Shown here in pieces: positions 11,561 to 61,294 of a stretch of DNA of 64,000 nucleotides. How positions within the stretch are numbered: the first letter of the stretch is position 1; each line of letters starts with the position of its first letter. The stretch comes from Sphyrna mokarran (lineage: Eukaryota), in the NCBI GenBank assembly GCA_024679065.1, contig JAGIQG010000048.1, positions 372,001 through 436,000 of the forward strand, in the 5' to 3' direction. The position numbers were made by a program, and so were the translations under genes. The notes under the pieces are model-generated. The model ran no database searches, was not told the DNA's origin, and was given only the letters and a program-made list of their open reading frames with translations.

Positions 11561-14492
11561 TGGAGTTGAGGAATAGGAAGGGAGAGGTTACGATGTTGGG
11601 TGTGTACTACAGACCGCCCAACAGCCCGCGGGCCGTGGAAAAAGGGATATGCAGGGACATTTTAGGTAAGTGTAGGAAGAATAGGGTAGTTGTAGTGGGA
11701 GATTTCAATTTCCCTGGGGTAGATTGGAAGGTGCCGAGAGCGGAAGGTGCGGACGGGGAGGAATTTGTACAGTGTGTTTTAGAAGGGTCCTTGGAGCAGT
11801 ATGTGGATAGCCCGACGAGAGAAGGGGCTGTACAGGATCTGGTTCTGGGGAATGAGCCAGGGCAGGTGGTTGACGTTGCAGTAGGAGAGCATGTGTCTAA
11901 TAGTGACCACAACTCTGTCTGCTTTAGGGTATTAATGGAAAAAGATGAAGCCTGCCCTAAGGAGAGGGTGTTAAACTGGGGGAGGGCTAGATATAGCCAG
12001 ATTAGGCAGGATCTTAAGGATACCGACTGGGATAAGCTGTTCGAGGGTAGGTCGACGCTGTACATGTGGGAGTCTTTCAAGGGAAAACTAAAATCTTTGC
12101 AGGAAAGACACGTGCCGGTAAGGAGGAAGGATGGGAAAGGTAGGATTAGAGAACTGTGGGTTACTAGGGATATCGAGGACTTGGTCAGGAAGAAGCGGGA
12201 GGCGTACGTTAGATCCAGGCAACTGAGGACAGAGACAGCGCTGGAAGAATATAGAGAGTGTAGACGGGATCTTAAAAGGGGTGTGAGAAAGGCAAAATGG
12301 GGCCACGAGATGGGTTTGGCAGGTAGGATTAAGGAAAATCCTAAGGCATTTTACTCCTATGTAAGGAGCAAAAGGATGGTTAGAGGGAAGATTGGACTTC
12401 TCAGGGACAGAGGAGGGGATCTATGCTTCGAGCCTGAGGGAATGGGGGAGATCTTGAATGAATACTTTGCATCGGTATTCACGCAGGAGAGGGGCCTGAT
12501 GTCGGGTGCCGGCTTTGAGGAATTTGAGGACCCGTTAAAGGAAATAACCATTACGAGGGAAGAGGTGTTGGGGCTTTTAGGTAGCATAAAGACTTATAAA
12601 GCTCCGGGGCCTGATGGTTTTTATCCCAGGCTGTTAAGGGCGGTGAGAGATGACATTGCTGATCCTCTGACGCAAATCTTTCTCTCATCTTTGGACACAG
12701 GTGAGGTCCCAGAGGATTGGAGGATAGCAAATGTAGTACCGTTGTTTAAAAAGGGTCAGAGGGATAACCCAGGAAACTATAGGCCGGTGAGCTTGACTTC
12801 AGTTATAGGTAAGCTAATGGAGAGGATTCTCAGGGACAGGATGTATGAGCATCTGGAGCGCTGCGATCTGATCAGGGATACGCAGCATGGCTTCGTTAAG
12901 GAGAGGTCGTGCCTTACGAATCTAGTGGAATTTTTTGAAGAGGTGACAAAAACGGTTGATGAAGGACAAACCGTGGATGTCGTCTACATGGATTTCAGTA
13001 AGGCGTTTGACAATGTTCCTCATGGTAGGCTGATAGAAAAGGTGAAGGCGCATGGGATACAGGGCCAGGTATGTAGATGGGTTGAGAACTGGCTTGGGAG
13101 GAGGAGACGGTGGGTAGTAGTGGAAGGCTCTTTTTCCAACTGGAGGTGTGTGCCTAGTGGTGTGCCACAGGGCTCAGTATTAGGGCCTCTTCTATTTGTG
13201 ATTTATATAAATGACTTGGTAGAGGGGGTAGGTGGTGTGATCAGCAAATTTGCTGATGACACTAAGATGCTTGGATTGGCAGGAACTGAGGAGCAGTGCC
13301 AGGCAATACAACAGGACATCGATTGGCTGGTAGATTGGGCAGATAGATGGCAAATGGAATTTAATCCGGATAAATGCGAGGTGATGCATTTTGGCCGGAA
13401 TAATGTAAAGGGGAGTTATAGGATAAAAGGTAAAACTATCCGGAGTATAGAGACGCAGAGAGACCTGGCGGTGCAGGTTCACAAGTCTCTGAAGGTGTCA
13501 GTACAGGTGGAGAATGTGATAAAGAAAGCGTATGGTATGTTAGCCTTCATAGGAAGGGGTATAGAATACAAGAGTAGGAGTCTGATTTTGCAAGTGTATA
13601 GAACGTTGGTTAGGCCTCACTTGGAATACTGCGTCCAGTTCTGGTCGCCGTACTACCAGAAGGATGTGGAGGCCTTGGAGAGAGTGCAGAGGAGATTTAC
13701 CAGGATGCTGCCTGGTATGGAAAGGCTGTCTTACGAGGAAAGATTGAACGCACTGGGGTTGTTTTCCCTTGAAAGACGTCGGCTGAGAGGGGATCTATTA
13801 AAGGTATATAAGATTATGAGGGGTATAGATAGAGTAAATGGTGGTAAGCTTTTTCCACCATTAGAAATGGATAGAACGAGGGGTCATGGCCTTAGGGTGA
13901 GGGGGGCTATGTATAAGACGAATATTAGAGGGCAGTTTTTCCACACAAAGGGTAGTGGGGGTGTGGAATGCACTGCCGAGTAAGGTGGTGGGAGCAGGCA
14001 CGCTAGGGTTGTTTAAGGGTCTCTTGGACAGCCACATGAGCGGTCTGCAGATAGAGGGATATAGTAGGACTGTTTAAATATCCTGTTTGTTTCCACAGGA
14101 TGTTCGGTCCACCTTGTTGACCAACAAGGTGCATGTATTTGGCAGGTCGTGCGAGGGCAGCTCTTGGATGTTACTTCAGGAGTGGCCTAGTGCTTCACAT
14201 CGTCAGTGTATGCTTAAACTGGACCATCTGATGGCAACATGACAGCTCAGAGACTATTGCTGTGCAGACACATAGATTTGCGCCTGTGTCTGCGGGAGTT
14301 TGCGCGTTCTCCCCGTGGGTGCGTGGGTTTTCTCCGGGTGCTCCGGTTTCCTCCCACATCCCAAAGATGTGCTCTTAGGCTGATTGGGTAACAAATTGGT
14401 CTCTATATGTCATTAAGACGTTAGGACGGCGTCGCGGGCTCGTTGGGCCGAAGGGCCTGTTTCCGGGGCTGTGTTGTTCTTTGTTCTTTGTT
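11561..14492 (+). mobile_element. 5'-truncated young CR1 LINE with near-complete ORF2 and an unusually long 3' region
   Basis: Contains the 805-aa ORF; ends in gggccgaagggcctgt...(tgttctt)n at ~14490. Confidence 0.9.
11566..13983 (+). CDS. CR1 ORF2: partial AP endonuclease plus reverse transcriptase (frameshift near the C-terminus)
   Basis: GVYYRPP, GDFN and SDH (endonuclease); [26 protein letters not shown] and FADD (RT). Confidence 0.92.
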
Positions 14493-14619
14493 ACCGAAAC
14501 ACTTGTAATGCAAAAATTTTGTTTCAGTTTAGTACACACACACATAAATGTTTTGATGCAGTAGGAATTGAGACGCAGTCAGATTGAAGTTTTGAAACTT
14601 ATTTATCAGTGTCATTAGG

Positions 14620-14886
14620 CCGAAATTAACACTGTAATTAAGTTACTGTAAAAATCCCCTACTCGTCTGTTGGGGTAGAATTTAGGGGAGAGTGTAGCAT
14701 GGCCGAAATTCACCTAAACAGCACGTCCTTCGGACTGTGGGAGGAAACTGGGGGACGGGGATAGAACCAGCAGCCACAGGGAGAACAGGCAGACCCCACA
14801 CAGACAGTCACCATAGCTGGGAAGTGAAGCCAGGTCCCTGGTGATGTCAAACAGCAGTGATAATCATTGTGCCAACGTGCCACCCA
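14620..14886 (-). mobile_element. V-SINE (HE1-like) with tRNA-derived head (mirror ~60818-61080 plus)
   Basis: gggtggcacgttggcacaatgattatcactgctg head and V-domain. Confidence 0.75.
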
Positions 14887-15011
14887 TATTAACTGAAATA
14901 TAGTTCAGCACAGTTATAACTCAGAAAGTACCGTCTAAATAGGGTCCTGGTCTCATCTAGGAACAACTGATATTGAGCCGAGTACAGAGCTAAAGGAGAA
15001 CTACAAGTGCT

Positions 15012-15460
15012 TTGGTCCACCTTGTTATCTAACGAGGGACATACACGTGATGGGTCGTGAGAGGGCTGCTCTTGGAGTTTTTTAGAGAGTATCCTAGTGC
15101 TTCACGTCGTTAGTGTATGCTTGACCAGGACCATTTGATGGGCAACACGACAGCTCAGTGACTATCGCTGTGCTGTGCAGATACATGGATTTGGGCCTGT
15201 GTCTGTGGGAATTTGCGCATTCTCCCCGTGCTTGCGTGGGTTTTTCTCCGGGTGCTCCGGTTTCCTCCCACATCCCAAAGATGTGCTCTTAGGCTAATTG
15301 GCAAAACAAATTCTCCCTAAATTGTCTCAAATTTGGTTTTTAATCCATAGATCTATAAACATAGACAGGGATCACGGGTAGAGGTGGGAACATAGGGGTG
15401 GTGGCGCAGGCTCGTTGGGCCGAAGGGCCTGTTTCCCGTGCTGTTTTGTTCTTTGTTCTT
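15012..15460 (+). mobile_element. Structured-leader + V-SINE-body retroelement (same module as the CR1 3' region 14100-14490)
   Basis: Colinear with 14104-14380; V-domain; (tgttctt)n tail. Confidence 0.8.
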
Positions 15461-16552
15461 TGAGATGGAACATGTTGCAGTGTGATCGAGACATGGCCTA
15501 TTGCAATGCAAACAGAGATGGGAGCTAATTGAATATAAGCAGAGATATGACACGTTCAAAGTTACTTTACAACATTTCCGTAAAGAAACATTTGTTTTTC
15601 ACTTTGAGAATGTGGTGATGAGCCCTCTCCTCGAACTATTTAATTCCAAACAGAGTAAAGACACACACAGTGCTGATAGAAAGGGAGTTAGAAGATTTTC
15701 ATCCATTGACACTGATGGCGTGTAGGTTTTATGGACACTTGCAAGCAATTGGACTCTCGGGCATCTGCTGCCCGTGTGTTTTGAAGTGTCAGAGTTAATG
15801 TGTTTGGAAGGTGCTGTGGGAGGATTATGTTGCTGGTATACAAGTTCTCTATATTTCAGACCACTGGAATTGTGAAGCAGGCAGTGAATGCTTAATGTGA
15901 TGTGTGGGGCCTCCATTGAAGCACCAGGGTGGTATGGAGATATTTGGGTGCTGCTTCAGGGTCACGTGTCAGACAAGTTGGAGAATATTCAATCACACTT
16001 CTCCATTTGCTGAGTTCCCATATCACTAAGAACGGGGAGTTTTATTTGAGACCCATGCTGCGGTTAATTGTTTAAATGTTCCAGCGCCCACTCAGGGCTG
16101 CATGCGACAGAACTGCAAAGTTAGGTCTGACCCGGATCAGGGTGATTGTGTGCTGTATAAATTGACATGTACTGGTGCAATACAAGTTTTATCAGAGAGA
16201 GAGAGGGGGGGAGGCTAATTCAAAATGAACAGATACAAGGTCCAGTGTATTGCAGTAATCCATGTTTCAAGGTAATGTAACCCATCCATATCTTATTTCC
16301 ATCTGCTGGCAAAACATTGTCGTTATGGCTACTGAGAAAATATGGCTGTCATGTATGATCTATGATATTAGTGTACCAAGAATTCACATCCATCAATGTA
16401 ACACCACATCCCTTTCTGGGATGTGCCAAAATTTAAGGTGCGACCCCTTGTACACATCCCTTGCTGGATTATGAAGGTTAGATGGCAGGAAATAATGGGG
16501 CCTCCATGATTTACAATATTCATTAAGGGCTTAGATAATGGGGACAAAAAGA

Positions 16553-17138
16553 TGAACATAGAACATTACAGCGCAGAACAGGCCCTTCGGCCTTCGATGT
16601 TGCGCCGACCAATTAGGAAAAAGCAATGACCCTCTCACCTAACCATTCCATTTTCATCCATAAACTTATCCATTGACCACTTAAACGCCACCAAACTTGG
16701 CGCATCTACAACTGCAGCAGTTACCCTCTGGGTAAAGAACCTACCTCTGACATCCGTCGTATAACTACCACCCCTTAATTTAAAGCAATGTCCCCTCGTG
16801 CTAGCTTTCTCCATCCTAGGAAAAAGGCTATCACTGTCCACCCTATCTAAACCTCTAATCATCTTATATGTTTCGATTAGGTCCCTTCTTAGCCGCCTCC
16901 GTTCTAATGAAAACAACCTCAAATCCCTCAGCCTCTCTTCATAAGACCTGCCCTCCATACCAGGCAACATCCTGGTAAACCTCATCTGTACCCTCTCCAA
17001 TGCCTCCACATCTTTCTTATAATGTGGGGACCAGAACTGCACACAATACTCCAAGTGCGGCCGCACTAGAGTTTTGTACAGTTGCAACATGACGTTGTAG
17101 CTCTGAAATTCAATCCCCCTACCAATAAAAGCTAAGAC
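16553..17138 (-). mobile_element. CR1 3' fragment nested in an older plus-strand CR1 (~16470-16550 and ~17140-17850)
   Basis: ORF 16635-17090 [21 protein letters not shown]. Confidence 0.9.
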
Positions 17139-18065
17139 ATTTAGCTAAGCTAAATGGGAGGTCAAAATATAATTTTTGGAAGACACAAAGTTAAATTTAA
17201 CGAATGCCAAAGAAGATTTGGGATTGGGCGCATGGTTTCTTAAAATGTCACGATCTGCCGCACAAAATAGTCATGAAGCCCAACGGAAGGCTGACCTTCA
17301 TTTCCAAAGGACTGGGGTATACGGATACAGATGTTGCACTGCAATAGTGCAAAATCCTTGTTTGACCCCAATTTTAGAGTACTGGGAGCAAGTGTGGGGA
17401 ACACACGTTTGGAGAGATTTCGGCTCTGGACGGAGTTCAATGTAAGTTGCCAGGAGAGATCAGGGAATTTAAGACTTTTCCTCTCGAATTCAGAAGGTTG
17501 AGGGCCGTTCCGATAGAAATTTCTGAAATACTCCCGGGTGAGGACTGTTTCCATTAGTTGGAGTTTCGAGAAGAAAGTGCCACATTTTGTAAAATAGGAA
17601 AGACCTTTCAGGAGATAGAAAGCATTTCTACACGCAGAGAGAGAGAGATGAATGTTTGGAACTCTCTTCTGCAATTGCGGATGGTGCTGGTTCAATTGTT
17701 AGATTTAAGTTTGAGATTAACAGGTGTATCAACAGATATGGGCCTCGGGAAGTTACATGGATTCGAGCACAAATCAGCCATGATCTTATTGAATGGTGCG
17801 GGGTGGGGAGAGTTCAGGAGCTGAGTGGTCTATTCCTGTGGCTATATTCCCATGTTGCCAGATCAGCATCAGATCAAAATGGCCCAGTCCGTGGGAATGT
17901 ATTTTTGTTCATTTTGGTGAAAAAGGAGGGATGTTGCCCTGGGAGCTGTTGGAGACCATGGGACCTTCAACATCCAGCTCAGCAAACATGGCCTTGTGGA
18001 AATATAGATTAGTTTGTCATTCTATTTGAATTTAGTTGGGTCTCTGGAAGCCAAGATGTAGTTTT

Positions 18066-18301
18066 NNNNNNNNNNNNNNNNNNNNNNNNNNNNNNNNNNN
18101 NNNNNNNNNNNNNNNNNNNNNNNNNNNNNNNNNNNNNNNNNNNNNNNNNNNNNNNNNNNNNNNNNNNNNNNNNNNNNNNNNNNNNNNNNNNNNNNNNNNN
18201 NNNNNNNNNNNNNNNNNNNNNNNNNNNNNNNNNNNNNNNNNNNNNNNNNNNNNNNNNNNNNNNNNNNNNNNNNNNNNNNNNNNNNNNNNNNNNNNNNNNN
18301 N
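18066..18301. other. Assembly gap (further gaps at 22175-22321 and 22400-22541)
   Basis: N runs. Confidence 1.
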
Positions 18302-18926
18302 GAACAATTTGTCGGAAAGAATGACAACGATACAATATTTGTGTGTGCGTCTTTATGCATTGCCTGAAAAACATGTTATATTGTTTCCGAATCAATGTCC
18401 CAATGATAAGCAGCATCCTCCCATTTACAATACAAGTTCGAATCACAGGAACCACATTCATTTTAACTTGGTGTGTTTTTTCTTCATATTTCACTTTTGT
18501 TGATGACTGAGGAGGACAATTTCGGAGAGATTGAGTCAATTGCAAGTGTTGCCCATGAAGTTATCAGTTGGGTTGTAAATTGTCCTTTTCTATATCAGCA
18601 ATGATACCAAGGATGTTTTGGGTGGAGCGCGCTTAGTTCCCCCAAATGTTGTAGTCTCTGATGTTAGTGTCGAATGTCTGACTGAGATTCACGAATGTAT
18701 GGGTGTGATATGTATATCTTCCAACACAAACACAACGCTGTGCTTCAGGTTCTTCAGGCAGATGAGGAACAACATTGGCATCCTATCAAAGACCTTTCCC
18801 GTGATGCTATGATTGAGATATATCTATAGATGTTGCCGTTTCCTCTGGCGGTCTTGTCTTCAGATAGTGTGATGTGTCTGAATCATGAATCTCCTGTAGA
18901 ATGGAACTTGTCTTCTGGCAGAGAAA

Positions 18927-19727
18927 GCGAAGGTCATAAATGTTCAGAAAGTTGGTATTTATTTCCATCAATTGCCATCCATTCTCAAAGATGCACAATT
19001 TTAGTTATCATCCATTCATAAACATTGATATATTGACATTTTAATGGAAGGGATATGGGTGTTTCCGGCCACGTCAGTATTTGTTGCCTATCCCTAATTG
19101 TGTTTAGTAAGCTGGTGGTAAGCTGCCTTCTTGAGTTGCTGCTGATCCTGCGGTGTAGGCACCCATACCGTCCTGTTAAGAGGGAGTTCTAGGATTTGAT
19201 CCAAAGACAATGAAGGAAGGATGATATAGTTCCACATCAGGTATATAACTGACTGGGAGGGGAATTTATAGGTGATATTCCCTAGTAACTGTGACCATGT
19301 TCCTTCTAGATGGTAACTGTCACGTGGTTGGAAGGTGCTGCCTGAGGAATCTTGATGAGGTTCAGAAGTGAAACTTGTAGATAACGATTCTCTCTCTGGT
19401 GGAGGGAGAGAACATTTGCAAATGTTATACCGGTTGCTTTGTCCTGAATGGAATGAAGATTTTTGAATGTTGTTCGAACTGCACTTACTCAAACAAGCGG
19501 AAAGAACCATTTGAGTCTCCTGATATGTGTCATGTAGGTGGTGCAGAGATTTGAGGAGTCAGGAGGTGAGTTACCCACAGCATGTTGACCTGATATTGCA
19601 GCCGGAGTATTCACATACCGAACTAATGCCAGCCAATGGTATCCCAGCGATGTTTGTAGTCTGTGATTCAGTGTCACAATATCATTATATGACAAAGAGT
19701 AGACTTTTCATTTTTTGCAGATGGTCA
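18927..19727. repeat. Inverted duplicate of 59897-60694 (contains a decayed LINE 3' part); 14490-15010 likewise mirrors 60693-61214
   Basis: Mirror ORFs 19489-19695- / 59928-60134+ are almost identical; ends checked by eye. Confidence 0.9.
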
Positions 19728-20374
19728 CGGGTAAATAGGTTTCTGATAGACAAGGGAATTACGGGGAGAAAGCGGGAAAGTGGAACTGATCCACTTCAGA
19801 TCAGCCATGATCTTATTGAATGGTGGGACAGGCTCGAGGGGCTGGATGGCCGACTCCTGCTCCTGTTTCTGATGTTCTTGTGGGTTTCCCCCATCACAGT
19901 GTGTTTATCTTGGTTCCTGTACAAAACTTCAAGCAAGTCAATCACTCTCAGTGAGAAGGGCTCTGTGTTATTCATCCCGATGAACAGCGAGGGCAGAAAC
20001 AGGAAAAGGCTGGGAATGAGCATGGGCTGGGCAAAATGAGTTCCAGAACAGACAATCTCCATGTCAAAGTGGGAAAATAATGACCCCACCGTTTCAAAAA
20101 CCTCACTGCACCCCCCCCCCAACCCCATTCACCCTCCCTCCCCTAACCCTCCATCTCTCCAATTGATTGATAAATGTACACTATTGAATCTATTGATGGT
20201 GAACGAAGAAGTGGAATCGAGATTGGTGTTGGTCTAGGGACAGGGGAGGGTGGAGTAGTCGGGGAGAGGTGGGACAGGGAGGGAGGGAGGCCTTGTTGGT
20301 GGGTGGGGGGGGGCGTGGAGGGGGGAGTGCAGAGGGCATGAGAAATTGCGATGGATGCTGAGATGAAAAATGTC

Positions 20375-23186
20375 CAGGCGCTGCTGTTCGTGGGTCTCAG
20401 AGAAGGTCAGTCACTCGCTGGGAACATCTGCAAAACCTGGGGCTAAAATGGGAATATTGAACGATATTGTCCGGGATTGGAGTTTCCAGGAGGAGGAGGA
20501 GGAATTCGCCCTTTGTTTTATAACCAGACACCGCACACAAACCGTGTTCTTCATTCCCCACAGGGGGATATTGTCTGGAGATTGCAGTTGGGATTATTTC
20601 AGACTGCAAATTGTACATTCCATGCAGTTCTCAAATGTTCATCAGCTTCAGAATATTAGTGGGGAAACTTTTCTGTCCTCTGTACTTCGTTTGTCAGACG
20701 TTTTCAAGGACTTCTCTTACAAGGGCATAAAAGCAGAGACATTTACAAGGGACACACAAACACACACACACACATATATACACATCACACACACACACAT
20801 ATATAAACACACACACCACACACACACACATAGGTACACACTACACACACATACACACTCACTCACTCAGGTCCTGGAGCATTGAGTTAGCGGACACACA
20901 CACACACAGGTACAGGGGTATACAGAGCTGCAGGGGGCATATACTGATTCAGGGCTACATGTCAATGCAGGGGCAGACAAAGATTCAGGCGAGCACACAC
21001 ACAGATACTGGAAATTACAAAGTTAGAAGGGCACACACAGAATCAGGGGTATACAAACAGTGAAACTGGGGCGTACACGGATACAAAGGTACACAGAATC
21101 AGGGGTATACAAACAGTGAAACTGGAGCAAACACAGATACAAAGGTACACAGAATCAACACAATTAATTTAAGGTGTTTGCAGAAGTTGGCTCTGCTCGT
21201 TCACATTCTCTTTACCCCTAATTGACAATTCAGAGGAGCCAGTGCCTGTGGGATCCAGCCCCTGGTTGTATGTCTGCTGTGTTTCATTCACGTGATATGG
21301 CTGACTGCTCCATTCCCTGTCTATACCTGTCTCTCCTTGCTTCTGTGTATCAGCCTCAGTCTATTTCACTCTCTCTGTGCCTAGATCTCCTTTCCCAATT
21401 TTCCTCTTATTTCCCTCTAAGCTCTCACTGTCTGTGTAACCAAGGTTCACTGGATTGATTACTGTGCGAGGCAGTTACCCTCGGAAAAGGGATTTAATGC
21501 CATGACACGGTTCTCTCTGGGGTTTGGAATAATGAGATGGGATCTCATTGAAAAGTCTGGAACTACGAGGGAGAGTTTGGCAGTGTACAAGCTGAGAGAT
21601 TGTATATGCTCCTGATTCTGTGTGTACCTTGTATCTGTGTATGCCCCAGTTTCACTGTTTGTATACCCCTGATTCTGTGTACCTTTGTATCTGTGTACAC
21701 TCCAGTTTCACTGTTTGTATACCCCTGATTCTGTGTACCTTTGTATCTGTGTATGCTCCAGTTTCACTGTTTGTATACCCCTGATTCTGTGTACCTTTGT
21801 ATCTGTGTATGCCCCAGTTTCACTGTTTGTATACCCCGATTCTGTGCCAGTTTCACTGTTTGTATACCCCTGATTCTGTGTGTGCCCTTCTAAATTTCTA
21901 ATTTCCAGTATCTGTGTGTGTGCTCGCCTGAATCTTTGTGTGCCCCTGCATTGACATGTAGCCCTGAATCAGTATATGCCCCCTGTAGCTCTGTATACCC
22001 CTGTACCTGTGTGTGTGTGTGTGTGTGTGCTTATGTATTTGTGTGTGTCCGCTAACTCTGAGTGCTCCAGAACCTGTGTGTGCCGAACTGTAAGTGTGTG
22101 TGTGTTTATATGTATGTGTATCTGTGTCTGTGTGTGTGTGAGAGAGTGAGTGTCTATATGTGTGTGTAGTGTGTNNNNNNNNNNNNNNNNNNNNNNNNNN
22201 NNNNNNNNNNNNNNNNNNNNNNNNNNNNNNNNNNNNNNNNNNNNNNNNNNNNNNNNNNNNNNNNNNNNNNNNNNNNNNNNNNNNNNNNNNNNNNNNNNNN
22301 NNNNNNNNNNNNNNNNNNNNNTGTTTATGTGTGTTCTTGTGTGTGTGGGTGTGGGGTGTGGGTGTGTGTTTATGTTGTGTGTGGGGTGTGTTTATGTGTN
22401 NNNNNNNNNNNNNNNNNNNNNNNNNNNNNNNNNNNNNNNNNNNNNNNNNNNNNNNNNNNNNNNNNNNNNNNNNNNNNNNNNNNNNNNNNNNNNNNNNNNN
22501 NNNNNNNNNNNNNNNNNNNNNNNNNNNNNNNNNNNNNNNNNTGTGTGTTGGTGTGTGTTTATATGTGTGTGGGTGTGTGTGTGGGTGTGTGTTTATATGT
22601 GTGTGGTGTGTGTGTGGGTGTGTGTTTATATGTTGTGGGTGTGTGGGTGTGTGTTATATGTGGGGTTTGTGTGTGTGTGTGTTATATGTGTGTGTGTGGT
22701 GTGTTTATATGTGTGTGTGTGTGTGTTGTGTGTTATGTGTGTGATGTGTGTTATATGTGTGTTTGTGTGTCCCTTGTAAATGTCTCTGCTTTTGTGTGTG
22801 TTTGTGTGTCCCTTGTAAATGTCTCTGCTTTTGTGCCCTTGTAAGAGAAGTCCTTGAAAACGTCTGACAAACGAAGTACAGAGGACTGAAAAGTTTCCCC
22901 ACTAATATTCTGAAGCTGATAAACATTTGAGAACTGCATGGAATGTACAATTTGCAGTCTGAAATAATCCCAACTGCAATCTCCAGACAATATCCCCCTG
23001 TGGGGAATGAAGAACACGGTTTGTGTGCGGTGTCTGGTTATAAAACAAAGGGCGAATTCCTCCTCCTCCTCCTGGAAACTCCAATCCCGGACAATATCGT
23101 TCAATATTCCCATTTTAGCCCCAGGTTTTGCAGATGTTCCCAGCGAGTGACTGACCTTCTCTGAGACCAACGAACAGCAGCGCCTG
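20375..23186. repeat. Palindrome: arms ~20375-21157 and ~21612-23186 with CA/TG tracts and a minisatellite
   Basis: Mirror ORFs 20397-20618- / 22943-23164+ are identical. Confidence 0.9.
21612..21880. repeat. 56-bp minisatellite, ~5 units (about 2 inverted units at 21040-21157)
   Basis: ctgattctgtgtacctttgtatctgtgtatgc.ccagtttcactgtttgtataccc recurs at 21669, 21725 and 21781. Confidence 0.9.
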
Positions 23187-37881: not shown

Positions 37882-38394
37882 CTGGGAAAAAAAAATAGCC
37901 AGTTGAACAAGTTAGACTCTTATTTGTGTTTATTCAGTCAACAAACTTGTTACAACTAGGTTTCTATAGTAGATATAGCTCTTGGTGAGAAAGGGATGAA
38001 GGGATATGGGAAATAGGCATGATCAGGATGTTGATGAGCTCTGTGAATGGCAGCGTAAGCTCAAAGTGCCGAATGGCCTACTCCTGCTTCTATCTCGAAC
38101 GTTGATTGGAATTAGAGGGCCAAAGGGCCTGTACTGCACTGTAATGTTCTATGTTCCATTCTGAACTTATCCCAACATTTCTCCATTGAAACTTCCATCC
38201 ACCTTTGAGATTATGTTACTTCTTTCATTTGGGAATCGTCATCTCTGTAGGAACTCAAATCCCTGTCTCCGCCTCCATCAAATTCAGAAGGAAATAAACA
38301 TTCCAATAGTCTCTAAATGACGTCTCATTCATTGGATTAATAGAGAACAGGAAAGATTCTCTCTATTATTTGTAACCATTTGTTTCTCAAACAA

Positions 38395-42620: not shown

Positions 42621-44418
42621 AATCTCTATCTGGCTGATTCAGTCTGGAAAAGCACCCTCACTACACACACACTCACCCAGTAAGTGGGGTTGTCAAGCGA
42701 GCACAGTATGGATTGCGGGGCAAGAGTTGGAAAAACATTTACCAGTCACGATTGAATACATTCCTCTCTTCTCAAGGGGATAAACTTGTAAAATCCTCAA
42801 GAAATTTGACACAATCCAGGGTAAAGCCACCCACAAGTTTACCCGCTCCCCGCCCAGCCCTCATTCATCCTATTTGCTCTCTCCATCACTAACAAGCAGG
42901 GTGTATTATACACAACATGCACGGCAGCAACTCACCAAGGCTCCATACAATACACTGTCTAAACCTGCTGCCTTTACATCCCAATAGGACCAGGGCAGCA
43001 GCTACATATGAACACTACTACCTGCAAACTCCCCTCCATAACACACCATCCTGAGTTGGAACAAGATCTCAGTTCCTTCACAATCGCTGGGGCAAAATCC
43101 TGGAACTTCCTGTCTAACAGCAGGGCGGATGCCTGCGACATATGGACTGCAGTTATTCAAGGATGCCACACTTCGTGAAGGAAAAATTAGTGAAGGTTAA
43201 AAATCCTGGCCAAGCAAATGGCTCGAAAATGCCTTTAGAAGGTTAAAAATAAGATACAAATGAATTTGACCCTTCAACTATCCCTAAACAGTTCAGGGAC
43301 TGCTGTAGTACTGAGCACAACATAGGAAATCTCACTTTCAACTTGGTCATCGAACATTCCCAAGGCTGGTACATCACTGCTTAAAAATCATCCAATTCTC
43401 CCTCTACAATCTGAAGTTTCTGCTCCCTCTGACAATCACAATATGCTTCAGGGATCTAATTTCTGACTTGCTGAGTCTAGCAGGCACATTTCTCACAAAT
43501 ACAAGTCTATTGAAGAAATAAATAGAATTTCACTTCCTGAAATACAGCAGAAGGAACCAGAAGATTTTTTAACCAGTCGGACACATTCCTGGTCCCAACA
43601 CAGTGACCCAAGCTCAGAGAAACAGAACAAACACCAACGGTTCAGAAAGATCTCTTCAATCTGTAAATTCCATTCAAACTGTTGGATTCGAATTGATGAA
43701 TAGTCAACTTACATCAACCGAAAATCATTAACCTATTTTAAATTAAACTGATATTCATTTCAGAACTCCTCTCGACCTTTAATTATTTCTCTCTGCCTGT
43801 GTCACTTCTCAAAAACTTCATGTAAAAATGTAATTTTGCTGAAAATGAGCCAAAATAGCAGATTCAACTCAGTTCAATGTCCCCCAACACAGTAAGAATT
43901 AAACAAACTGGGAAACATTTACATTACATTAAGAAATTAGATCCAATCAACAAATTAATCAAGGCAAAACACTTTATCAAGCCGAGCAAAGAAATGGTTT
44001 GTTTTTGAATTCATTTTGGTACAATTAAATATTCTCTAAAACTGATGATATTTTGCACACTAGTGCAATATTCAAGGTCTTTTGTTTTGAATTAATCAGC
44101 ATCAATATTACATTTTAAGTTATCATTAATTGTCAATTAGTTTTCCTGCCAGCTGTTTTGTACTCGAATAAAATGAGTTTTCAATCATTCAAAACCTGCT
44201 TCTGCCCCCAACATTGTTAAATAATTAGGTTACATTAAATCTCAATGTTCAACTATAATTTCAAATTACTGAACAGAAACATTCATTTACTTAAATCTAA
44301 TCACATTGTAATATTACATTTACACTTTTCCTTCATATGTCTTAAAGGTGTTAAAAACACATACTTCTGAGTTTATATAGACTGTAACGGTCTGGCCGCT
44401 TGAAATCAATAATACTGC

Positions 44419-44503: not shown

Positions 44504-47249
44504 CACATTAATTAAAGAGGATCTGAATTAAACAGTGCAAACACAAAGAGAACAATTGATTCAAATCCTCTAATGCTAAAAACACGATGCAGAATATAAG
44601 TCTGGACCTTTTTTCATTATAATATTTAATAAGAATTAAACATAAGCTTCAGTTAGTATGAATTCTTCCATTCTGTCATTTATTCTTGCTGTAATTCTAT
44701 TTTGTGTTTAGCATTAATGGGAGACTTGTTAAGTGCCGAGCTAATATTATTTTTATGATATTTATCATACTATTTTTATATAAAATCATCTTCTTGAATT
44801 TCAAGCATTTAATTGTCACTGTAGCCAGTTTCTGCTGACATTTTACTACAATTCAAACAGAATCATGTAACAAATTTCCTTGTGTCAGCGAATTCCGTCT
44901 GTCAGAAAACTGTTCAGTCTGTCAATTTTTTATGAACTGTTTGATTCTACCTGATCAAAAGGTCAAATTGCAACAAAGAAAAAAATCATCAATAAACATT
45001 TTAAATTAACCCAATGTTCATTTTAAAATTCCCGTTGCCTTTCAACTCTCTCCCCGACTGTCTCAAATCCCAAAAACTGGGCAATTTTTTTCCTCTAAAA
45101 TGAGGACTTCAAATATAATAGATTCAGGGTAGTGTAATGTCCCTAACAGAGATACAGTGAATTGTAATTCATGTTTTAGTTTAATACGTAAGCATCAGTT
45201 AACATGAATAAAATGCCCTAACATATTTATTTTCCAATACTATTCTGCTTTTTCCCTACAAGAATATTCAAACGCAATTTTATTTTCATTTAGTCCGAAG
45301 TGCTCAGTGAGTTGATACAATGCAAAAACAATTGAGGGACGCCAAACCAATTCACAAATTGAGATGAGATAAGTAATTAATTATCTCGGTATCTAATTAA
45401 AAAATACCGAGAACGAATCGTCTGGCTGCAATTGCATAGAAAACATTATAATCGGATACAAAATTTTCCAAAAAGAAAATTATTCTGCAAAACTCGTATT
45501 CCAGTGAATGCGAATTTAATCTGGGATATAACCATTAATGCAAAGTATCTTGTTCAACTGAGCGCTGCTGTGAAAACAGCGTGTTATCATTCAAATAGCT
45601 TCTGGAATTGTCCCAAAATATTTCCTGTCTGGAAAATGCTCTGATCATGTTAATTGCATGAACACAGCAAAGCTATTAAAGGGGATTCTTGCTAACTCAA
45701 TGTAAAATAATCTGTGATGAATATGGAGTTATATTACCAATTAATGATTCTCTGATTTATATTAATTTTACTATTAAACTTGTGAATGAAAAGTTGGTAT
45801 TTACAGCAACGATTTAGTCTCCGAATGAGCGAATAAGTCATGATTTACTTGAATTTGTTAAACTTTATAAAAACGCTGTGATCTCTTCCGGGTTTTTTCC
45901 CCCAAACTTGCTTGTTTTCTCCCGACAGGGATTTTCAAACTCAAAGATTGTTTGTGTTCAACCAGAAAACATCTAAGCTCTCAACGGCACCGTTAAAACA
46001 CTATTTAAACAACGCAGCAGCAATAGTGCCACAAAACTAAACCATTTCACACATTTTAAACATTCACAGTGACCCACCCACAGAATCTCCTCCACAGAAA
46101 CACAACAAAACACAATGAATCCGTCTCATAGAAAAGCAGCCCAATTATCTATTCAACACAATCAAATGTAACATTGCAAAATAAAAATCTCAATATCGAA
46201 TCTAGCAAACCAGCTCTTAAACAATTATTAAATCAAACAGAAATCTGGAATAATAGCAATAGCATTGCGAGAATATACCCAACAAATTAGTATGGAAATT
46301 TTATCACATTTTATTCCTATTGGGTCATATTTCAAACATATTTAAACATTTGGATGGTAAAAGTTCGAGCCATCAAATGCCACCGAGATTAAACATTGCA
46401 GATACCCCCAACTGTGACAAACTATGTTCTGAACGAGTGGTGTAAGCCATTATCACTAAAGATTTTTAAAACTAGGCATACAATAAAGCCTGCTTCATTT
46501 CTGTCTGCAGTTCTGCGTCAAGCAGTGGCAAACATCAGTATGTTTGTACTCAATCACAAAACGTGTCACAATTCAGTCTCACTGAGTTCAAACGACGCAG
46601 AAACACCAAATTAAGTCACAATTTTTACGTCTTTAAAGTCACTCAGGCACAAACTCACCACTGAGAGACTGAACCCCGCTTCATGCAGAAGCAGCACAGT
46701 TCTGCAAACACTTCCAGTAGAAAGAAATGTAACATTTACAGAAATGTTTACTGTAAATTACAGCCAATTCGCCCACCACCAAACTAATCAATGTTTCCAA
46801 TAAGCAGAAATATTGGACAGCATTGAGAGAGAGGGGAACATTTTCACTGGATCAATTTAGAAATGAGATTTTGTTTTTAAGTTTAGGTTTAAATTTCAAA
46901 CACTTGTACAACCCGTAGCCACCAGATGTCACCAAGATTAAACATTGCAGAAACGCTGAATTGTTTAACAGATGTTCGGCTTTTAAAGTCACCCAGCCAC
47001 ACAATAACCTCAACAGACAAACACAAAATCACAACAATTTGGGATTGAAGCCCTCAGCAGCACCCACTGTCAAGGAAGAGCGGAATTCTAAAACCCTTTT
47101 GCAGCAGAATCATAGAAAACATTGTAAAAATTCTCAACGGAGAATCCACCGAACGCATATTTATGTTACCAAATGGATTATTAGTACGGATAAAAATTAT
47201 AAAACAAAGACACATTTAAACCAGTTATTCAATAAGTGATGGTTCTTAC

Positions 47250-47297
47250 CTGAAGTCACCGTCACCATGGTCCCTTGTCCCCAGTAATCGAAGTAGT
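47250..47297 (-). CDS. IGHJ: JH segment (YFDYWGQGTMVTVTS)
   Basis: WGxG motif; G|gtaag donor. Confidence 0.97.
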
Positions 47298-47663: not shown

Positions 47664-47732
47664 GGTTTTTGTATTGACAGTAACTGCTGTGCTATTCCAG
47701 CTATCACAGTGAGACACAGCATGACAAATACT
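47664..47732 (-). other. IGHD: DH2 segment ATAGCTGGAATAG (47692-47704) with 12/12 RSSs
   Basis: 5' RSS CACAGTG-12-ACAAATACT; 3' RSS CACAGCA-12-ACAAAAACC. Confidence 0.93.
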
Positions 47733-48024: not shown

Positions 48025-48107
48025 GGTTTTTGTATGAGGATGTCGTTTTTCACAGCACAGTGACCCACTGCTATAGTATCACAGTGACACACAGCCATAC
48101 AAAAACT
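48025..48107 (-). other. IGHD: DH1 segment ATACTATAGCAGTGGGT (48063-48079) with 12/22 RSSs
   Basis: 5' RSS CACAGTG-12-ACAAAAACT; 3' RSS CACTGTG-22-ACAAAAACC. Confidence 0.93.
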
Positions 48108-48472: not shown

Positions 48473-48777
48473 GTCTGTTGCACAGTAATAGATGGCGGTG
48501 TCTTCAATCCTTAGACGCGTCATGTCCAAAGAGAAGATGTTGTTTGAAGTGTCTTTGGACGCCGTAAATCGGCCCTGAATTCCGGGGGCGTACGCGTTAA
48601 TGGATGAACTATAGTAGCTAACCAGCCACTCCAGTCCCTGTCCGGGAACCTGCCAGATCCAAGCCATAGCAGAGCTGCCAAAGTTTAAGCCGCTGGTTTT
48701 ACAGGTCAGTTTCAGGGAGGCTTCGGGACGGCCGGTCTCTGCCTCTTTCTGGGTCAACACAACCTCCGACTGGACAC
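48473..48777 (-). CDS. IGHV: VH exon (IgM VH)
   Basis: tttacag|[30 protein letters not shown]...[11 protein letters not shown]...RFTASKD...[11 protein letters not shown]. Confidence 0.97.
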
Positions 48778-48902
48778 CTGTAAATAAAAAATCAAAAATT
48801 CTAAGGGTTAATCCTGGTGGAATGATTCTGGAGCATTCCAGAGATAGACTAACATTGAGACAGTGAAATGAAAGTCTTGGACAATGAAAATAAACTACTC
48901 AC

Positions 48903-48948
48903 CGGATAAGAAAGTCAGCAACAAACTGAGACAAATCGCCGACCTCAT
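48903..48948 (-). CDS. IGHV: VH leader exon (MRSAICLSLLLTFLS)
   Basis: 46 nt from ATG to G|gtgagt; hydrophobic signal peptide, phase 1. Confidence 0.93.
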
Positions 48949-54200: not shown

Positions 54201-56150
54201 AATGTATCAAGCATTTCAAGATCATGGATTTCTCAAGAGATCTGTTTGAGTAATTCTCAGTCATAGATTGCAATTTATTGAATTACATTATTTTAGAAGC
54301 CTGTAACTCTGGCTGAGAGAAGACATTGGGCTGACATGGACTTTATGCTGTGGAGTTAAGACAATGAACCATCTTGGAGAGACAGGACACAGACAGGAGA
54401 AAGACAGAGATAGAGATGAAACACGGGGAGATTTACAGGAACACATTTGCTGTGTCATTACATTTAGGATCAGAGGGATTATTCCTTAATTCTGAACATA
54501 GATATCATCATGATGTTTTTTTCCTCACATAACTGATGAAGAAATGATGTTGAAAACAATCCTCACTGGAATCCGTTGATTGATTTGCATGGTTGTCTCT
54601 ATTTCTGGGCTGTGTTGGTGGGGAAATATTTGCTGTGTTTTTATCAGTCAACAATCTAATTCGGAATTTCTATTTCTGTATTTATTTACATAAATACCTC
54701 AGTGTTTACAATGAAATGTCCGTGACAACAAAACCAGATAAACCGTCACTTATTGATCAGTTTCAATTCAAAATTGTGGTTTATTTTAAGAATTTTAACG
54801 GTTGGTTCAAAATGAATCGAAACTTTTTGAACATTTATAACACCAGTTCTGATGTCACAATTAATTCATTTACCAGGCAACATCCTGGTAATCCTCCTCT
54901 GTACCCTCTCCAATGCCTCCACATCTTTCTTATAATGCGGGGACCAGAACTGTACACAATACTCCAAGTGCGGCCACACTAGAGTTTTGTACCGTTGCAA
55001 CATGACGTTGCGGCTCCGAAATTCAATCCCCCTACCAATAAAAGCTACGACTCCATATGCCTTCTTAACAACCTTCTCGACTTGACTGCCTACTTTCAGG
55101 GATCTATGCACATACACACCAAGATCCCTCTGTTCATCAAGACTACTAAGAATCCTACCATTAGCCCTATACTCTACACATTTATTATTTCTGCCATAGT
55201 GCATTACCTCACACTTTTCCACATTAAACTCCTTTTGCCACCTCTCGGCCCAGCTCTGCAACTTGTCCAAGTCCCTCTGCAAACTATAACACCCCTCTTC
55301 ACTATCTACCACTCCACCGACTTTAGTGTCATTTGCAAATTTACTAATCCATCCTTCAATACCCTCATCCAGATCATTTATAAAAATTACAAACAGCCGG
55401 GGCCCCAAAACAGACCCCTGAGGTACACCACTTGTCACCGAACTCCACGATGAATATCTCCCATCAACCACCACCCTCTGTCTTCTATCTGCTAGCCAAA
55501 ATTTGCCCGTAATTATTTCCCATCCCAGTGTTGTATTGGGTTGGGGAAATCATCATTGTTACTAACAAGGTGCCAGAGAATCGGGATACCTTTCTTTTCC
55601 AAAGGAAATGGAAAGCATGCATCAGCTTTCCAGATTTAAAAAAATCATTAAGTTAGCTCCAGTACTGTTACTAGGCAGATTTGTTCAGAAATAGGCTCCA
55701 TTGACAATGCTGAGAGTTTGAAGTTGGATTGCAGCCAATCGCTCAGCACTGAGGAAACAGATTTTCGACTTACTGAACAAACAGCATCGGATGCTTCCTG
55801 TAAATATCTTGGCGTATTTGGGAACAAATTGGACTGGAGCCAAATACTGCGTAGGACAGATTAACGTGGACATGTAGGGATAAAATGGGACTTAACCAGT
55901 CCCACAATAAATACTTGATTCCCACAATAAAGACATGTTTTAAATGGTATTCACTCCAAGCAATATTTTCAGGGACTGTACTGTGATTAAACAGTAACAG
56001 AAATGGGTAAATTGGATCGATCCATTTGTGTAGATCCATTTGGTGATCTAATTGAGGCGTATAAGATGATCAGAGGGTTAGATAGGGTGGATAGTGAGAG
56101 CATTTTTCCTCAGATGGAGAAAGCTAACACGAGGGGACATAGCTTTAAAT

Positions 56151-56440: not shown

Positions 56441-56464
56441 AGAATGACATTTATTTGGAAGTTA

Positions 56465-56820
56465 GAACATAGAACATTACAGCGCAGTACAGGCCCTTCG
56501 GCCCTCGATGTTGCGCCGACCAATGGAACCAATTTTATGACCCTCTATCCTAAAGTATTCCCATGCTATCCATCTGCCTATCCACTGACCATTTGAACGC
56601 CCTTAAACTTGGTGAGTCCACAACTGCTGTAGGCAGGGCATTCCATGCCCTTACCACCCTCTGAGTAAAGAACCCACCTCTAACATCTGTCCTAGAACTA
56701 CCACCCCTTAATTTAAAGCTATGTCCCCTCGTGTTAGCTTTCTCCATTCGAGGAAAAATGCTCTCACTATCCACCCTATCTAACCCTCTGATCATCTTAT
56801 ACACCTCAATTAGATCACCA
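56465..56820 (-). mobile_element. CR1 3' fragment
   Basis: ORF 56550-56858. Confidence 0.9.
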
Positions 56821-57359
56821 AATGGATCTACACAAATGGATCGATCCAATTTACCCATTTCTGTTACTGTTTAATCACAATACAGTCCCTGAAAATATTG
56901 CTTGGAGTGAATACCATTTAAAACGTGTCTTTATTGTGGGAATCAAGTATTTATTGTGGGACTGGTTAAGTCCCATTTTATCCCTACATGTCCACGTTAA
57001 TCCGTCCTACGCAGTATTTGGCTCCAGTCCAATTTGCTCCCAAATACGCCAAGATATTTACAGGAAGCATCCGATGCTGTTTGTTCAGTAAGTCGAAAAT
57101 CTGTTTCCTCAGTGCTGAGCGATTGGCTGCAATCCAACTTCAAACTCTCAGCATTGTCAATGGAGCCTATTTCTGAACAAATCTGCCTAGTACTGGAGCT
57201 AACTTAATGATTTTTTTAAATCTGGAAAGCTGATGCATGCTTTCCATTTCCTTGGGAAAAGAAAGGTATCCCGATTCTCTGGCACCTTGTTAGTAACAAT
57301 GATGATTTCCCCAACCCAATACAACACTGGGATGGGAAATAATTACCGGCAAATTTTGG

Positions 57360-58415
57360 CTAGCAGATAGAAGACAGAGGGTGGTGGTTGATGGGAGTTA
57401 TTCATCGTGGAGTTCGGTTACAAGTGGTGTACCTCAGGGGTCTGTTTTGGGGCCCCTGCTGTTTGTAATTTTTATAAATGATCTGGATGTGGGTATTGAA
57501 GGATGGATTATTAAATTTGCAGATGACACTAAAGTCGGTGGAGTGGTAGATAGTGAAGAGGGGTGTTATAGTTTGCAGAGAGACTTGTACAAGTTGCAGA
57601 GCTGGGCCGAGAGGTGGCAAATGGAGTTTAATGTGGAAAAGTGTGAGGTAATGCACTATGGCAGGAATAGTAAATGTGTAGAGTATAGGGCTAATGGTAG
57701 GATTCTTAGTAGTCTGGATGAACAGAGGGATCTTGGTGTGTATGTGCATAGATCCCTGAAAGTAGGCAGTCAAGTCGAGAAGGTTGTTAAGAAGGCATAT
57801 GGAGTCTTGGCTTTTATTGGTAGGGGGATTGAATTTCGGGGCCGCAACGTCATGTTGCAACTGTACAAAACTCTAATGCGGCCACACTTGGAGTATTGTG
57901 TGCAGTTCTGGTCCCCACATTATAAGAAAGATGTGGAGGCATTGGAGAGGGTACAGAGGAGGTTTACCAGGATGTTGCCTGGTATGGAGGGCAGGTCTAT
58001 GAAGAGAGGTTGAAGGATTTGAGGTTGTTTTCGTTAGAAAGGAGGCGGCTAAGAGGGGATCTTATTGAAGCATATAAGATGATTAGAGGTTTAGATAGGG
58101 TGGACAGTGATAGCCTTTTTCCTAGGATGGAGAAAGCTAGCATGAGGGGACACAACTTTAAATTAAGGGGTGATAGTTATAGGACTGATATCAGAGGTAG
58201 GTTCTTTACCCAAAGGGTGGTTCGGGAGTGGAATGCCCTGCCTGCCGCAGTTGTAGATGCGCCAAGTTTGGTGGCGTTTAAGAGGTTAGTTGATAAGTAT
58301 ATGGAAGAGAAGGGATTGATTTAGTTTGGAGGGTCATTGCTTTTTATATTGGTCGGCGCAACATCGAAGGCTGAAGGGCCTGTTCTGTGCTGTAATGTTC
58401 TATGTTCTATGTTCT
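57360..58415 (+). mobile_element. CR1 RT-to-3' fragment (partial mirror 54871-55495 minus)
   Basis: [14 protein letters not shown]...KFADDTK; atgttct tail. Confidence 0.92.
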
Positions 58416-58674
58416 AAATTGTGAGAGTTGATTCAGAGAGGTGATATATCTTATACTGTATAAACATTGTTGTGTTTTATTTCACTTTATTCTTCCAGGG
58501 GACGCGGGAGTCACTGGAAAGAACACCATTTGTTTCCTGTGCTAAATTCCTTTTCAGCTGAGTGGTGTGTCAGGGCATCTTAGAAGGCATTGTCTAGTTA
58601 TGTACATGGCGGCCCAACTTGAGTTACAGCCCGCTGAGCCATGTAGGGACGGCAGATTTCCTTCACTGGGGAAT

Positions 58675-59390
58675 CAGGAGGTGGAGAGGGACCTGGGGAT
58701 CCTTGTGCACAAATCACAAAAACCCAGTCTGCAGCTACAGCAGGTGATCAAGAAGGTGAATGGGATGGTGGCCTTTATGGCGAGGGGGATAGAATATAAA
58801 AGCAGGGAGGTCTTGCTGTAACTGTACAGGGCACTGGTGAGGCAGCAACTGGAGAACTGTGTGCAGTTTTGGTCCCCGCGTTTGTGTAAGGATATATTGG
58901 CCTTGGAGGGAGTACAGAGAACATTCACCAGGCTGATATCGGAGATGAGGGGTTAGTTTATGAGGGGAGATTGAATAGACTGGGTCTGTACTCGTTAGAG
59001 AAGGTTGAGGGGGGATCTTATAGAGACTTACAAGATAATGAAGGGAATGGATAGGGTAGAGGTAGAGAGATTCTTCCCACTTAGAAAGGAAACCAGAATT
59101 CGAGGGCACAGCCTCAAAATAAGGGGGGGTGGTTTAGATCAGAGTTGAGGAAGGAACTTCTTCACTCAGAGGATGGTGAATCTGGAATTCTCTGCCTCTT
59201 AAAGTGGCAGAGGCTCCCTCGCTGAATATATTTAAGTCACGGGTAGATAGGTTTCTGATAGACAAGGGAATTACAGGGAGAAAGCGGGAAAGTGGAACTG
59301 ATCCACTTCAGATCAGCCATGATCTTATTGAATGGTGGGACAGGCTCGAGGGGCTGGATGGCCGACTCCTGCTCCTATTTCTGATGTTCT
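58675..59390 (+). mobile_element. CR1 3' fragment (different subfamily)
   Basis: VERDLGILVHKSQK...GIEYKSREVLL. Confidence 0.88.
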
Positions 59391-61294
59391 AATGTCGCCT
59401 TTCTAGAGTAACAAAATCGCTCGACAGAACGTTACACAAATCAGTGAAGAATGAATCAATAAACAATATGGCAACTCAAATATTGTGAAAGTCACTGGAC
59501 AATTTGAAGCTTTAAATTATTTGTCAGAACCGTGTAAAAATCAATCTGGATTTTGAAGCTTCTATAAATTTATATTAGATAGAGATTGTTTCAGTCATAC
59601 AGCCATTTTTAAAATGGTCACATACTCGTTATATATCAAGAGTTTCTGTGTGATGATGAGGTGATTACTTGTCAATAAAGTTCAGAGGCTGCTGGGTAGC
59701 TACTACTATTTTGTCCTGATTTCATTCAATCTCCCGCTGAATTCTGGGGCAGAAAAGCCAATGCATTTGAATCCTAATATCTTATGTTAAATATACTGCA
59801 ATTAAATTGGCATCAGATAAAATATTGATAATAATTGGTGAAATATTAATTTATTTTTGTGAATTGAAGATTATTGGTAATATTGGCACCAGGCAATGAC
59901 CATCTGCAAAAATGAAAAGTCTACTCCTTGTCATATAATGATATTGTGACACTGAATCACAGACTACAAACATCGCTGGGATACCATTGGCTGGCATTAG
60001 TTCGGTATGTGAATACTCTGGCTGCAATATCAGGTCAACATGCTGTGGGTAACTCACCTCCTGACTCCTCAAATCTCTGCACCACCTACATGACACATAT
60101 CAGGAGACTAAAATGGGTCTTTCCGCTTGTTTGAGTAAGTGCAGTTCGAACAACATTCAAAAATCTTCATTCCATTCAGGACAAAGCAACCGGTATAACA
60201 TTCGCAAATATTCTCTCCCTCCACCAGAGAGAATCATTATCTACAAGTTTCACTTCTGAACCTCATCAAGATTCCTCAGGCAGCACCTTCCAACCACGTG
60301 ACAGTTACCATCTAGAAGGAACATGGTCACAGTTACTAGGGAATATCACCTATAAATTCCCCTCCCAGTCAGTTATATGCCTGATGTGGAACTATATCAT
60401 CCTTCCTTCATTGTCTTTGGATCAAATCCTAGAACTCCCTCTTAACAGGACGGTATGGGTGCCTACACCGCAGGATCGGCAGCAACTCAAGAAGGCAGCT
60501 TACCACCAGCTTACTAAACACAATTAGGGATAGGCAACAAATACTGACTTGGCCGGAAACACCCATATCCCTTCAATTAAAACGTCAATATATCAATGTT
60601 TATGAATGGATGATGACTAAAATTATGCATCTTTGAGAATGGATGGCAATTGATGGAAATAAACACCAACTTTCTGAACATATATGACCTTCGCACTTGT
60701 AGTTCTCCTTTCGCTCTGGACTCGGATCAATATCAGTTATTCCTCGATGAGACCAGGACCCTATTTAGACGGTACTTTCTGAGTTATAACAGTGCTGAAC
60801 TATATTTCAGTTAATATGGGTGGCACGTTGGCACAATGATTATCACTGCTGTTTGACATCACCAGGGACCTGGCTTCACTTCCCAGCTATGATGACTGTC
60901 TGTGTGGAGTCTGCCTGTTCTCCCTGTGGCTGCTGGTTCTATCCCCGTCCCCCGGTTTCCTCCCACAGTCCGAAGGACGTGCTGTTTAGGCGAATTTCGG
61001 CCATGCTACACTCTCCCTTAAACTCTACCCCAACAGCCGAGTAGGGGATTTTTACAGTAACTTAATTACAGTGTTAATGTCGGCCTAATGACACTGATAA
61101 ATAAGCTTCAAAACTTCAATCTGACTGCGTCTCAATTCCGACTGCATCAAAACATTTATGTGTGTGTGTACTAAACTGAAACAAAATTCTTGCATTACAA
61201 GTGTTTCGGTAACAGTATTGCTTGAACAATTCATGAAATCAAATGCTCTCGATCTTGTTTTAGTTGGAATTTGCTGTATGAGGAACGGGTTCAG

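Follow-up and report, generated by a model that had tools for sequence, protein, structure and literature searches.

Cartilaginous fish carry tens to hundreds of immunoglobulin (Ig) miniloci, the origin and relative layout of which are a long-standing question. Nurse shark IgM loci have been described as separated by at least 120 kb and mostly of unestablished linkage (PMC2435157, PMC5192425), with one linked pair, 120 kb apart, on record in that work (PMC2435157). Here we analyse a 64,000-nucleotide (nt) stretch of the genome of the hammerhead Sphyrna mokarran (GCA_024679065.1, contig JAGIQG010000048.1, positions 372,001-436,000, forward strand; hereafter the window), which holds one IgM cluster and, on its 3' side, inverted fragments of IgM flank and tail. 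The window is the final 64 kb of a 436,136-bp contig (C1082) with eight IgM clusters, of which the window's is the last. We consider it probable that the fragments are the relic of a deleted mirror-image sister within an alternating eight-cluster array, which likely grew by repeated fold-back inverted duplication. Such a mirror-image array with a deleted sister suggests a bearing on how shark Ig clusters multiply, within the limit that the head-to-head joins are known from the assembly alone.

As in the elasmobranch miniloci described from nurse shark, the hammerhead clusters comprise one variable (VH), two diversity (D) and one joining (JH) segment within 2 kb and one constant (Cmu) set, in many subfamily copies. 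They differ in lying 36-54 kb apart (one interval of 112 kb), in strictly alternating orientation and in having a putative deleted sister in place. Human fold-back inverted duplications (Hermetz et al. 2014, PMC3907307) have inverted arms around single-copy spacers of 0.7-70 kb; the hammerhead arms likewise enclose single-copy spacers, of about 0.13-7 kb. The human events are single, mostly de novo, and lie beside terminal deletions or translocations, whereas the hammerhead array would represent at least seven chained inversions fixed in a gene family. An inverted-duplication architecture of the Ig heavy-chain locus (IGH) has been called unique to birds and unreported in other vertebrates (Voss et al., bioRxiv 10.64898/2026.09.05.749481), in a preprint whose accessible text compares birds with mammals and reptiles and has no mention of shark or cartilaginous fish. 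Strand alternation via inverted duplication is common to avian IGH, where spacers are non-palindromic and template switching has been proposed, and to the hammerhead array. However, avian units in that text average 2.8 kb (mostly <5 kb), serve as V pseudogene donors for somatic conversion and include few functional genes, whereas the hammerhead units are 40-50-kb V-D-D-J-C clusters, all eight with open exons. The array bears on that 2026 claim: under the wider generalization given below, inverted-duplication IGH architecture would not be confined to birds. No palindromic IgM array was found in the shark Ig organisation literature covered, with subscription journals mostly outside that coverage. 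In the accessible parts of individual papers, the word 'orientation' is absent from the main text of a 2025 linkage study, whose table nevertheless gives strands; a bamboo shark study counts 37 IgM clusters and does not discuss how they are oriented to one another; and no cluster-orientation analysis was found in the whale shark and Vertebrate Genomes Project Phase I papers.

An assembled array of eight IgM clusters in alternating orientation

V exons on C1082 lie at 11.2(+), 63.6(-), 99.8(+), 152.2(-), 202.4(+), 255.0(-), 308.8(+) and 420.9(-) kb. All neighbouring pairs are on opposite strands (7/7, p = 0.008), in a head-to-head and tail-to-tail alternation over 436 kb. Six of the seven V-to-V intervals measure 36-54 kb and the remaining one 112 kb. 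Exactly eight V-D-D-J copies reach ≥97% identity, the next best being 81%. The clusters are 97-99% identical to one another, with pairwise divergence of 0.5-2.9% in a near star-like pattern. Stop-free V, CH1-4, secretory tail and transmembrane (TM) exons are present in 8/8 clusters, V differences fall mostly in complementarity-determining regions (CDRs), and the arms carry a median of three private substitutions and no private indels per kb. Because the sequence is clean and the differences include large indels and CDR changes, we regard the arms as distinct paralogs. Between them lie single-copy, asymmetric spacers of about 0.13, 0.5, 1.1, 1.9, 6.1 and 7.0 kb, with overlaps of only 1-4 nt at the spacer boundaries, where the head-to-head joins are noisy.

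Relationships among the eight clusters are mosaic, as the nearest neighbour shifts along the unit (seven segments compared). The mirror pair formed by clusters 6 and 7 is closest in 4/7 segments and only 0.5-0.7% apart over most of the unit. Clusters 4 and 5 are closest in one or two of the seven, and the remaining mirror pairs are not each other's closest, a comparison that polishing may confound. Sex-chromosome palindromic amplicons carry multicopy genes in mirror arms with arm-to-arm conversion, and the arms of Y palindromes are near-identical. The hammerhead array resembles these amplicons in its mirror arms, its mosaic relationships and one mirror pair more alike than the others; unlike Y palindromes, its arms are 97-99.5% identical and most mirror pairs are not the closest match. 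Clusters 3, 6 and 7 (V at 99.8, 255.0 and 308.8 kb) encode an identical VH protein and their C regions group differently, which suggests V-D-D-J exchange between clusters.

Inverted flank blocks and the putative sister relic

An earlier, sequence-only reading of the window noted that a 1.3-kb block upstream of the cluster recurs in reverse complement as two separate blocks downstream. Self-BLAST reproduces this for block A (18927-19727 against 60694-59897; 97.6% over 801 bp, E = 0) and block B (14489-15010 against 61214-60693; 96.7% over 522 bp, E = 0). In the upstream copy the two are fused at a 2-nt GC overlap (60693-60694), seen at base level, and downstream they lie 3,916 bp apart. As the cluster is on the minus strand, 14489-19727 lies on its 3' side and 59897-61214 on its 5' side, some 11 kb upstream of V. 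In window coordinates, the features concerned are:

1-7618, no strand: palindrome centre with 16.4-kb arms and a 100-bp spacer (3763-3862); 98.1% over 3762 bp
5604-11328, plus: C2H2 zinc-finger segment, copied along with the relic and carrying the open reading frame (ORF) 10007-11038; matches one locus, on contig C994 (11.31 Mb), at 98%
11329-14492, plus: long interspersed nuclear element (LINE) joining the zinc-finger segment to the relic, with an endonuclease and reverse transcriptase ORF at 11518-13980 (Pfam RVT_1, Exo_endo_phos_2)
14489-15010, plus: relic 5' flank, block B (reverse complement of 60693-61214); 96.7% over 522 bp
15011-18926, plus: 3.9-kb interval, retained by the relic and lost from every fused flank, with short interspersed nuclear element (SINE) and LINE insertions and one N run; collinear 67-78% matches in a C994 IgM paralog
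18927-19727, plus: relic 5' flank, block A (reverse complement of 59897-60694); 97.6% over 801 bp
19724-19878, plus: 155-bp SINE 3' piece matching 59236-59390 in opposite orientation, with GTCA microhomology
19879-20376, no strand: 498-bp filler at the deletion junction
20375-21157, plus: relic 3' tail of the putative sister (reverse complement of 23186-21726); about 99% to the tails of other clusters
21154-21670, no strand: tail-to-tail centre, a single-copy spacer from the sister tail to the tail of the window's cluster, with ATC microhomology
59897-61214, no strand: fused (deleted) 5' flank block common to the amplified clusters; seven full copies at 98-100% and one partial

A genome search for the block, in which 40 of 9,877 candidates were scored and counts are therefore lower bounds, returned at least seven full fused copies (98-100%) plus one partial copy, and at least two split copies of block A and three of block B. 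Among the matches scored, all 13 at ≥96% lie on C1082 or on a 23-kb flank-only contig (C1196), and further copies at 70-80% occur on C994 and C848. All 12 matches on C994 sit 3.7-19.5 kb 5' of a same-orientation IgM V-D-D-J, so the block flanks other IgM clusters (12/12 tested on that contig) and is, as had been proposed, a segmental copy tied to Ig loci and not a dispersed repeat. The two inverted copies are real, but the block does not mark out the window's cluster in particular, being ordinary IgM 5' flank. We regard it as a passenger and time marker, not a device.

The split arrangement is the older one. In a C994 paralog (75-80% identical), the flank runs in the order block A, four collinear matches to the interval (67-78%), block B, and then 60721-62107 and 62577-63996. 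Because this paralog retains the interval collinear between blocks A and B, the split form is ancestral. The fused form must then have arisen by a deletion at the GC microhomology, which every fused copy shares. A tree of block B groups the eight fused copies in one clade (98/97), with the three split copies outside it. The relic thus predates the 3.9-kb deletion and the downstream copy was not derived from the present-day flank. The proposal of a recent duplication of the cluster's own 5' flank is not supported, since the relic holds 3.9 kb missing from every fused flank and the block-B clade excludes the split copies.

From left to right, the window contains the zinc-finger segment, the LINE, the undeleted flank, the SINE piece, the filler, a 3' tail, a 0.5-kb spacer and the cluster's own tail. 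The left end of relic block B meets the LINE 3' tail at TGTT microhomology. The SINE piece is 97-99% identical to six flank copies and ≤97% to unlinked copies (among 40 scored), and was likely templated from 59236-59390, to judge from the sequence match. The filler matched only the sibling relic described below, and genome searches did not find its source sequence. Arms of the relic tail are complementary over 423 nt (96%) and 176 nt (98%), with a 512-nt gap between them, and the centre junction (21154) is found again behind cluster 7. Further left on the contig, outside the window, a sibling relic repeats the flank-SINE-filler junctions, with its tail, likewise in sister orientation, joined at 23708. 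The layout is therefore that of an inverted sister lacking the equivalent of 59896-23187 (36.7 kb), and we infer that the relic is a gutted mirror-image sister cluster. Its order, orientation and two independent copies fit the alternative, already raised from the sequence, of a stump of a deleted inverted sister. We note that a 56-bp tandem repeat (21600-21940) lies beside the tail-to-tail centre, that the window's centre junction falls within it, and that it is far longer in other clusters.

The zinc-finger/LINE/relic module has itself been multiplied. Through the palindrome with 16.4-kb arms the relic recurs in mirror image left of the window, and the 62-kb interval between clusters 7 and 8 contains three modules in alternating orientation, with palindrome centres near C1082:350,460 (the noisier copy) and at window 3763-3862. 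As a result of these palindromes, the C2H2 zinc-finger ORF exists in three copies; in one of them the finger array is shortened.

Proposed history and competing explanations

The deletion's geometry and order are seen in the sequence; we infer the repair pathway, from junction sequence only, and conversion. An ancestral cluster would have duplicated tail-to-tail, after which the body of one arm would have been lost via a microhomology join with templated filler, the same arm being linked through the LINE to the zinc-finger segment. The surviving lineage would then have lost 3.9 kb of flank at the GC microhomology, and more inverted duplications would have given rise to at least eight intact clusters. 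Asymmetric deletions may subsequently have trimmed the palindrome centres, with copy-to-copy exchange producing mosaic copies.

Older inverted IgM pairs are also found on C994, the main IgH contig (12.3 Mb), which carries at least 24 further IgM CH4 exons at 83-96%. Within the roughly 0.6 Mb of this contig covered by the pair comparison, three consecutive clusters, chained through one that both pairs share, form a tail-to-tail pair that aligns over 26 kb at 89.1% and a head-to-head pair that aligns over 32 kb at 92.6%; neither pair contains an N gap, and the spacers are about 6 and 10.6 kb. Among great white shark IgM models, which lie 0.19-2.1 Mb apart, strands differ between 7/8 neighbours (hand count of nine C-bearing rows in table S1, one V-only row dropped; PMC12227049). 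Two candidates on C994 were set aside: a second 'deleted sister' (V at 9.019 Mb without C exons) has a 100-N gap directly behind it, and a head-to-head pair (92.6%, 10.19-10.29 Mb), which has a gap within its span, was not used as support.

Several observations weigh against the proposed history. The three head-to-head joins lie at C1082:79,313, 180,605 and 282,447. At the first two head-to-head joins 200-400 bp on the right are noisy, and at the third the last 150 bp on the left, with 10-20 indel events per 150-200 bp, as in raw long reads; two of these joins begin at the same base and are identical past the noise. Because of this one-sided noise and common start base, the head-to-head joins may be gap-fills or mis-joins. 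The short tail-to-tail join, which the assembly contains twice (at about 124.0 and 230.7 kb), is not listed as a joint in the reads aligned to the sibling relic (X1 and X3-X5; four runs, at most two samples), and the X1 contig continues unbroken through the join site. Depth of the centre segment is half of what the assembly predicts, short-read polishing among paralogs could mimic part of the mosaic signal, and the block-A tree does not separate split from fused copies. Beyond C1082, only 12/17 close neighbours on C994 are opposite (p = 0.07), and that contig has a 44-kb direct duplicate (97.2%; 9,032,611-9,085,011 and 10,172,258-10,221,527, 1.1 Mb apart). Stingray neighbours in the table used for great white shark are rarely opposite and run in direct blocks (IgNAR 1/11; IgW 3/22, two V-only rows dropped; IgM 0/3). 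Inverted duplication therefore looks recurrent for IgM in the hammerhead genome and not universal. One end of the C994 direct duplicate adjoins an assembly gap, and the duplicate may be a real duplication or a retained haplotype.

With these points in mind, the relic and the paralogs could be real while the strict alternation is partly a product of assembly, the joins having been gap-filled or mis-joined between collapsed copies of a larger array. We think this unlikely, although it would account for the noise at all three head-to-head joins with their shared breakpoint base and for the failure to observe the short tail-to-tail joint in two other samples, and naive read depth gives about 27-29 copies against nine assembled, which is a hint only, being calculated without a single-copy control. 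The samples themselves do not represent the assembly's haplotype, because many reference-private bases are absent from all reads. On the sibling relic the X1 contig bridges the split-form boundary (the interval edge), the filler-SINE joint is crossed by only about 27 letters, and the depth of filler, interval, block A and tail is 1:1.8:4.2:3.9 in sample S3 against 1:1.45:4.5:4.5 as assembled. Assembly gaps appear as runs of 100 N on C994, but the C1082 stretches examined contain no N beyond the window's own runs. The window's tail-to-tail centre is clean, under 3 kb and repeated behind cluster 7, clusters 6 and 7 are the closest pair over most of the unit, and the older inverted pairs on C994 are gap-free, all of which argue against this explanation.

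The remaining explanations concern the blocks. An old 5' flank may have been transposed independently, as a segment together with the LINE and the zinc-finger segment, beside an existing tail-to-tail junction, with no whole sister ever present. The filler with no source found, and the foreign zinc-finger segment and LINE at the left end, which show that ectopic copying did occur, are consistent with such an event, but two copies whose tail breakpoints differ both have the flank and tail pieces correctly ordered and oriented as in a sister, and we regard it as distinctly improbable. Still harder to sustain is the idea that recombination between the two inverted blocks flips or amplifies the 40-kb cluster enclosed by them, the other outcome that the sequence-only reading had envisaged. 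Inverted 801-bp repeats at 97.6% could recombine in principle, and a weak hint of exchange is that block A of the sibling relic differs by 1.5% from the flank of the window's cluster and by 2.3% from the window relic; however, 0/9 block-A copies (≥97%) are in a recombinant arrangement within the assembly, the amplified unit is bounded elsewhere, the other seven clusters, which are part of one amplification with the window's, lack such a downstream block, and neighbouring 40-kb arms offer far longer substrates. Finally, parts of about 300 bp match old repeats on many contigs at 73-78%, as a dispersed high-copy element unrelated to Ig loci would; we give this explanation practically no credence and exclude it, because all 13 matches at ≥96% among those scored lie on C1082 or C1196, and all 12 tested on C994 lie 5' of an IgM V-D-D-J.

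Taking the relic as a deleted sister within an array grown by inverted duplication, whole-cluster inverted duplication becomes a candidate birth route for miniloci, and internal deletion leaving a stump a candidate death route. A wider generalization, which we put forward tentatively as possible rather than probable, is that shark IgM miniloci arise mainly when whole clusters are copied by fold-back inverted duplication, which builds palindromic chains; the arms would then be homogenised, and clusters would be lost through internal deletions, with flank-and-tail stumps left behind. Inter-cluster switching has been reported in sharks (review PMC4279169). If the alternation is real, such switching or rearrangement in B cells would be inversional, not deletional, and we predict that shark inter-cluster switching could run by inversion between neighbours 36-54 kb apart.

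The IgM cluster of the window

Between the blocks lies a single minus-strand IgM minilocus, with leader, VH, D1, D2 and JH in 1.7 kb (48948-47250), followed by CH1-CH4 with the secretory tail and then by the TM exon. Recombination signal sequence (RSS) spacers along the cluster are 23 (with a weak nonamer), 12/22, 12/12 and 23. The elements are:

48473-48948, minus: leader exon, intron and VH exon (sequence; Pfam V-set)
48063-48079, minus: D1, between RSSs with 12- and 22-bp spacers
47692-47704, minus: D2, between two RSSs with 12-bp spacers
47250-47297, minus: JH, with a 5' RSS with 23-bp spacer
37583-37882, minus: CH1 exon, approximate ends (Pfam C1-set)
37056-37364, minus: CH2 exon, approximate ends
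35343-35648, minus: CH3 exon, approximate ends
33773-34156, minus: CH4 with secretory tail (Pfam C1-set; best full-length PDB matches are Ig mu constant chains)
29972-30091, minus: IgM TM exon (translation)

VH framework 2 at 48661-48651 reads WIWQ in the window's cluster and WIRQ in the other seven, and CDR1 is also distinct, so this VH is possibly a drifting or less functional copy. JH is nine bases shorter at its 5' end in two C994 clusters (10,352,891-10,353,050 and 8,820,137-8,820,297). RSS-like sites at 46065-46102 and 43599-43635 in the J-C intron were considered as extra J segments and were not counted, as no J coding sequence lies behind them. They have consensus heptamers and spacers of 22 and 21 bp, are oriented like the JH RSS and occur in the array copies; by eye, the heptamers of the 46065 and 43599 sites are kept in 1/9 and 4/9 C994 paralogs, respectively.

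Two further repeats lie in the 5' flank. LINE fragments at 54871-56150 and 56711-57984 form an inverted pair (97.1%, 560-bp spacer), the part at 54848-56150 being found only in clusters 2 and 8, and mark a further small fold-back or deletion. An old direct duplication (54263-54831 and 63131-63689, 69%) is present in C994 paralogs too, and is possibly a conserved non-coding element.

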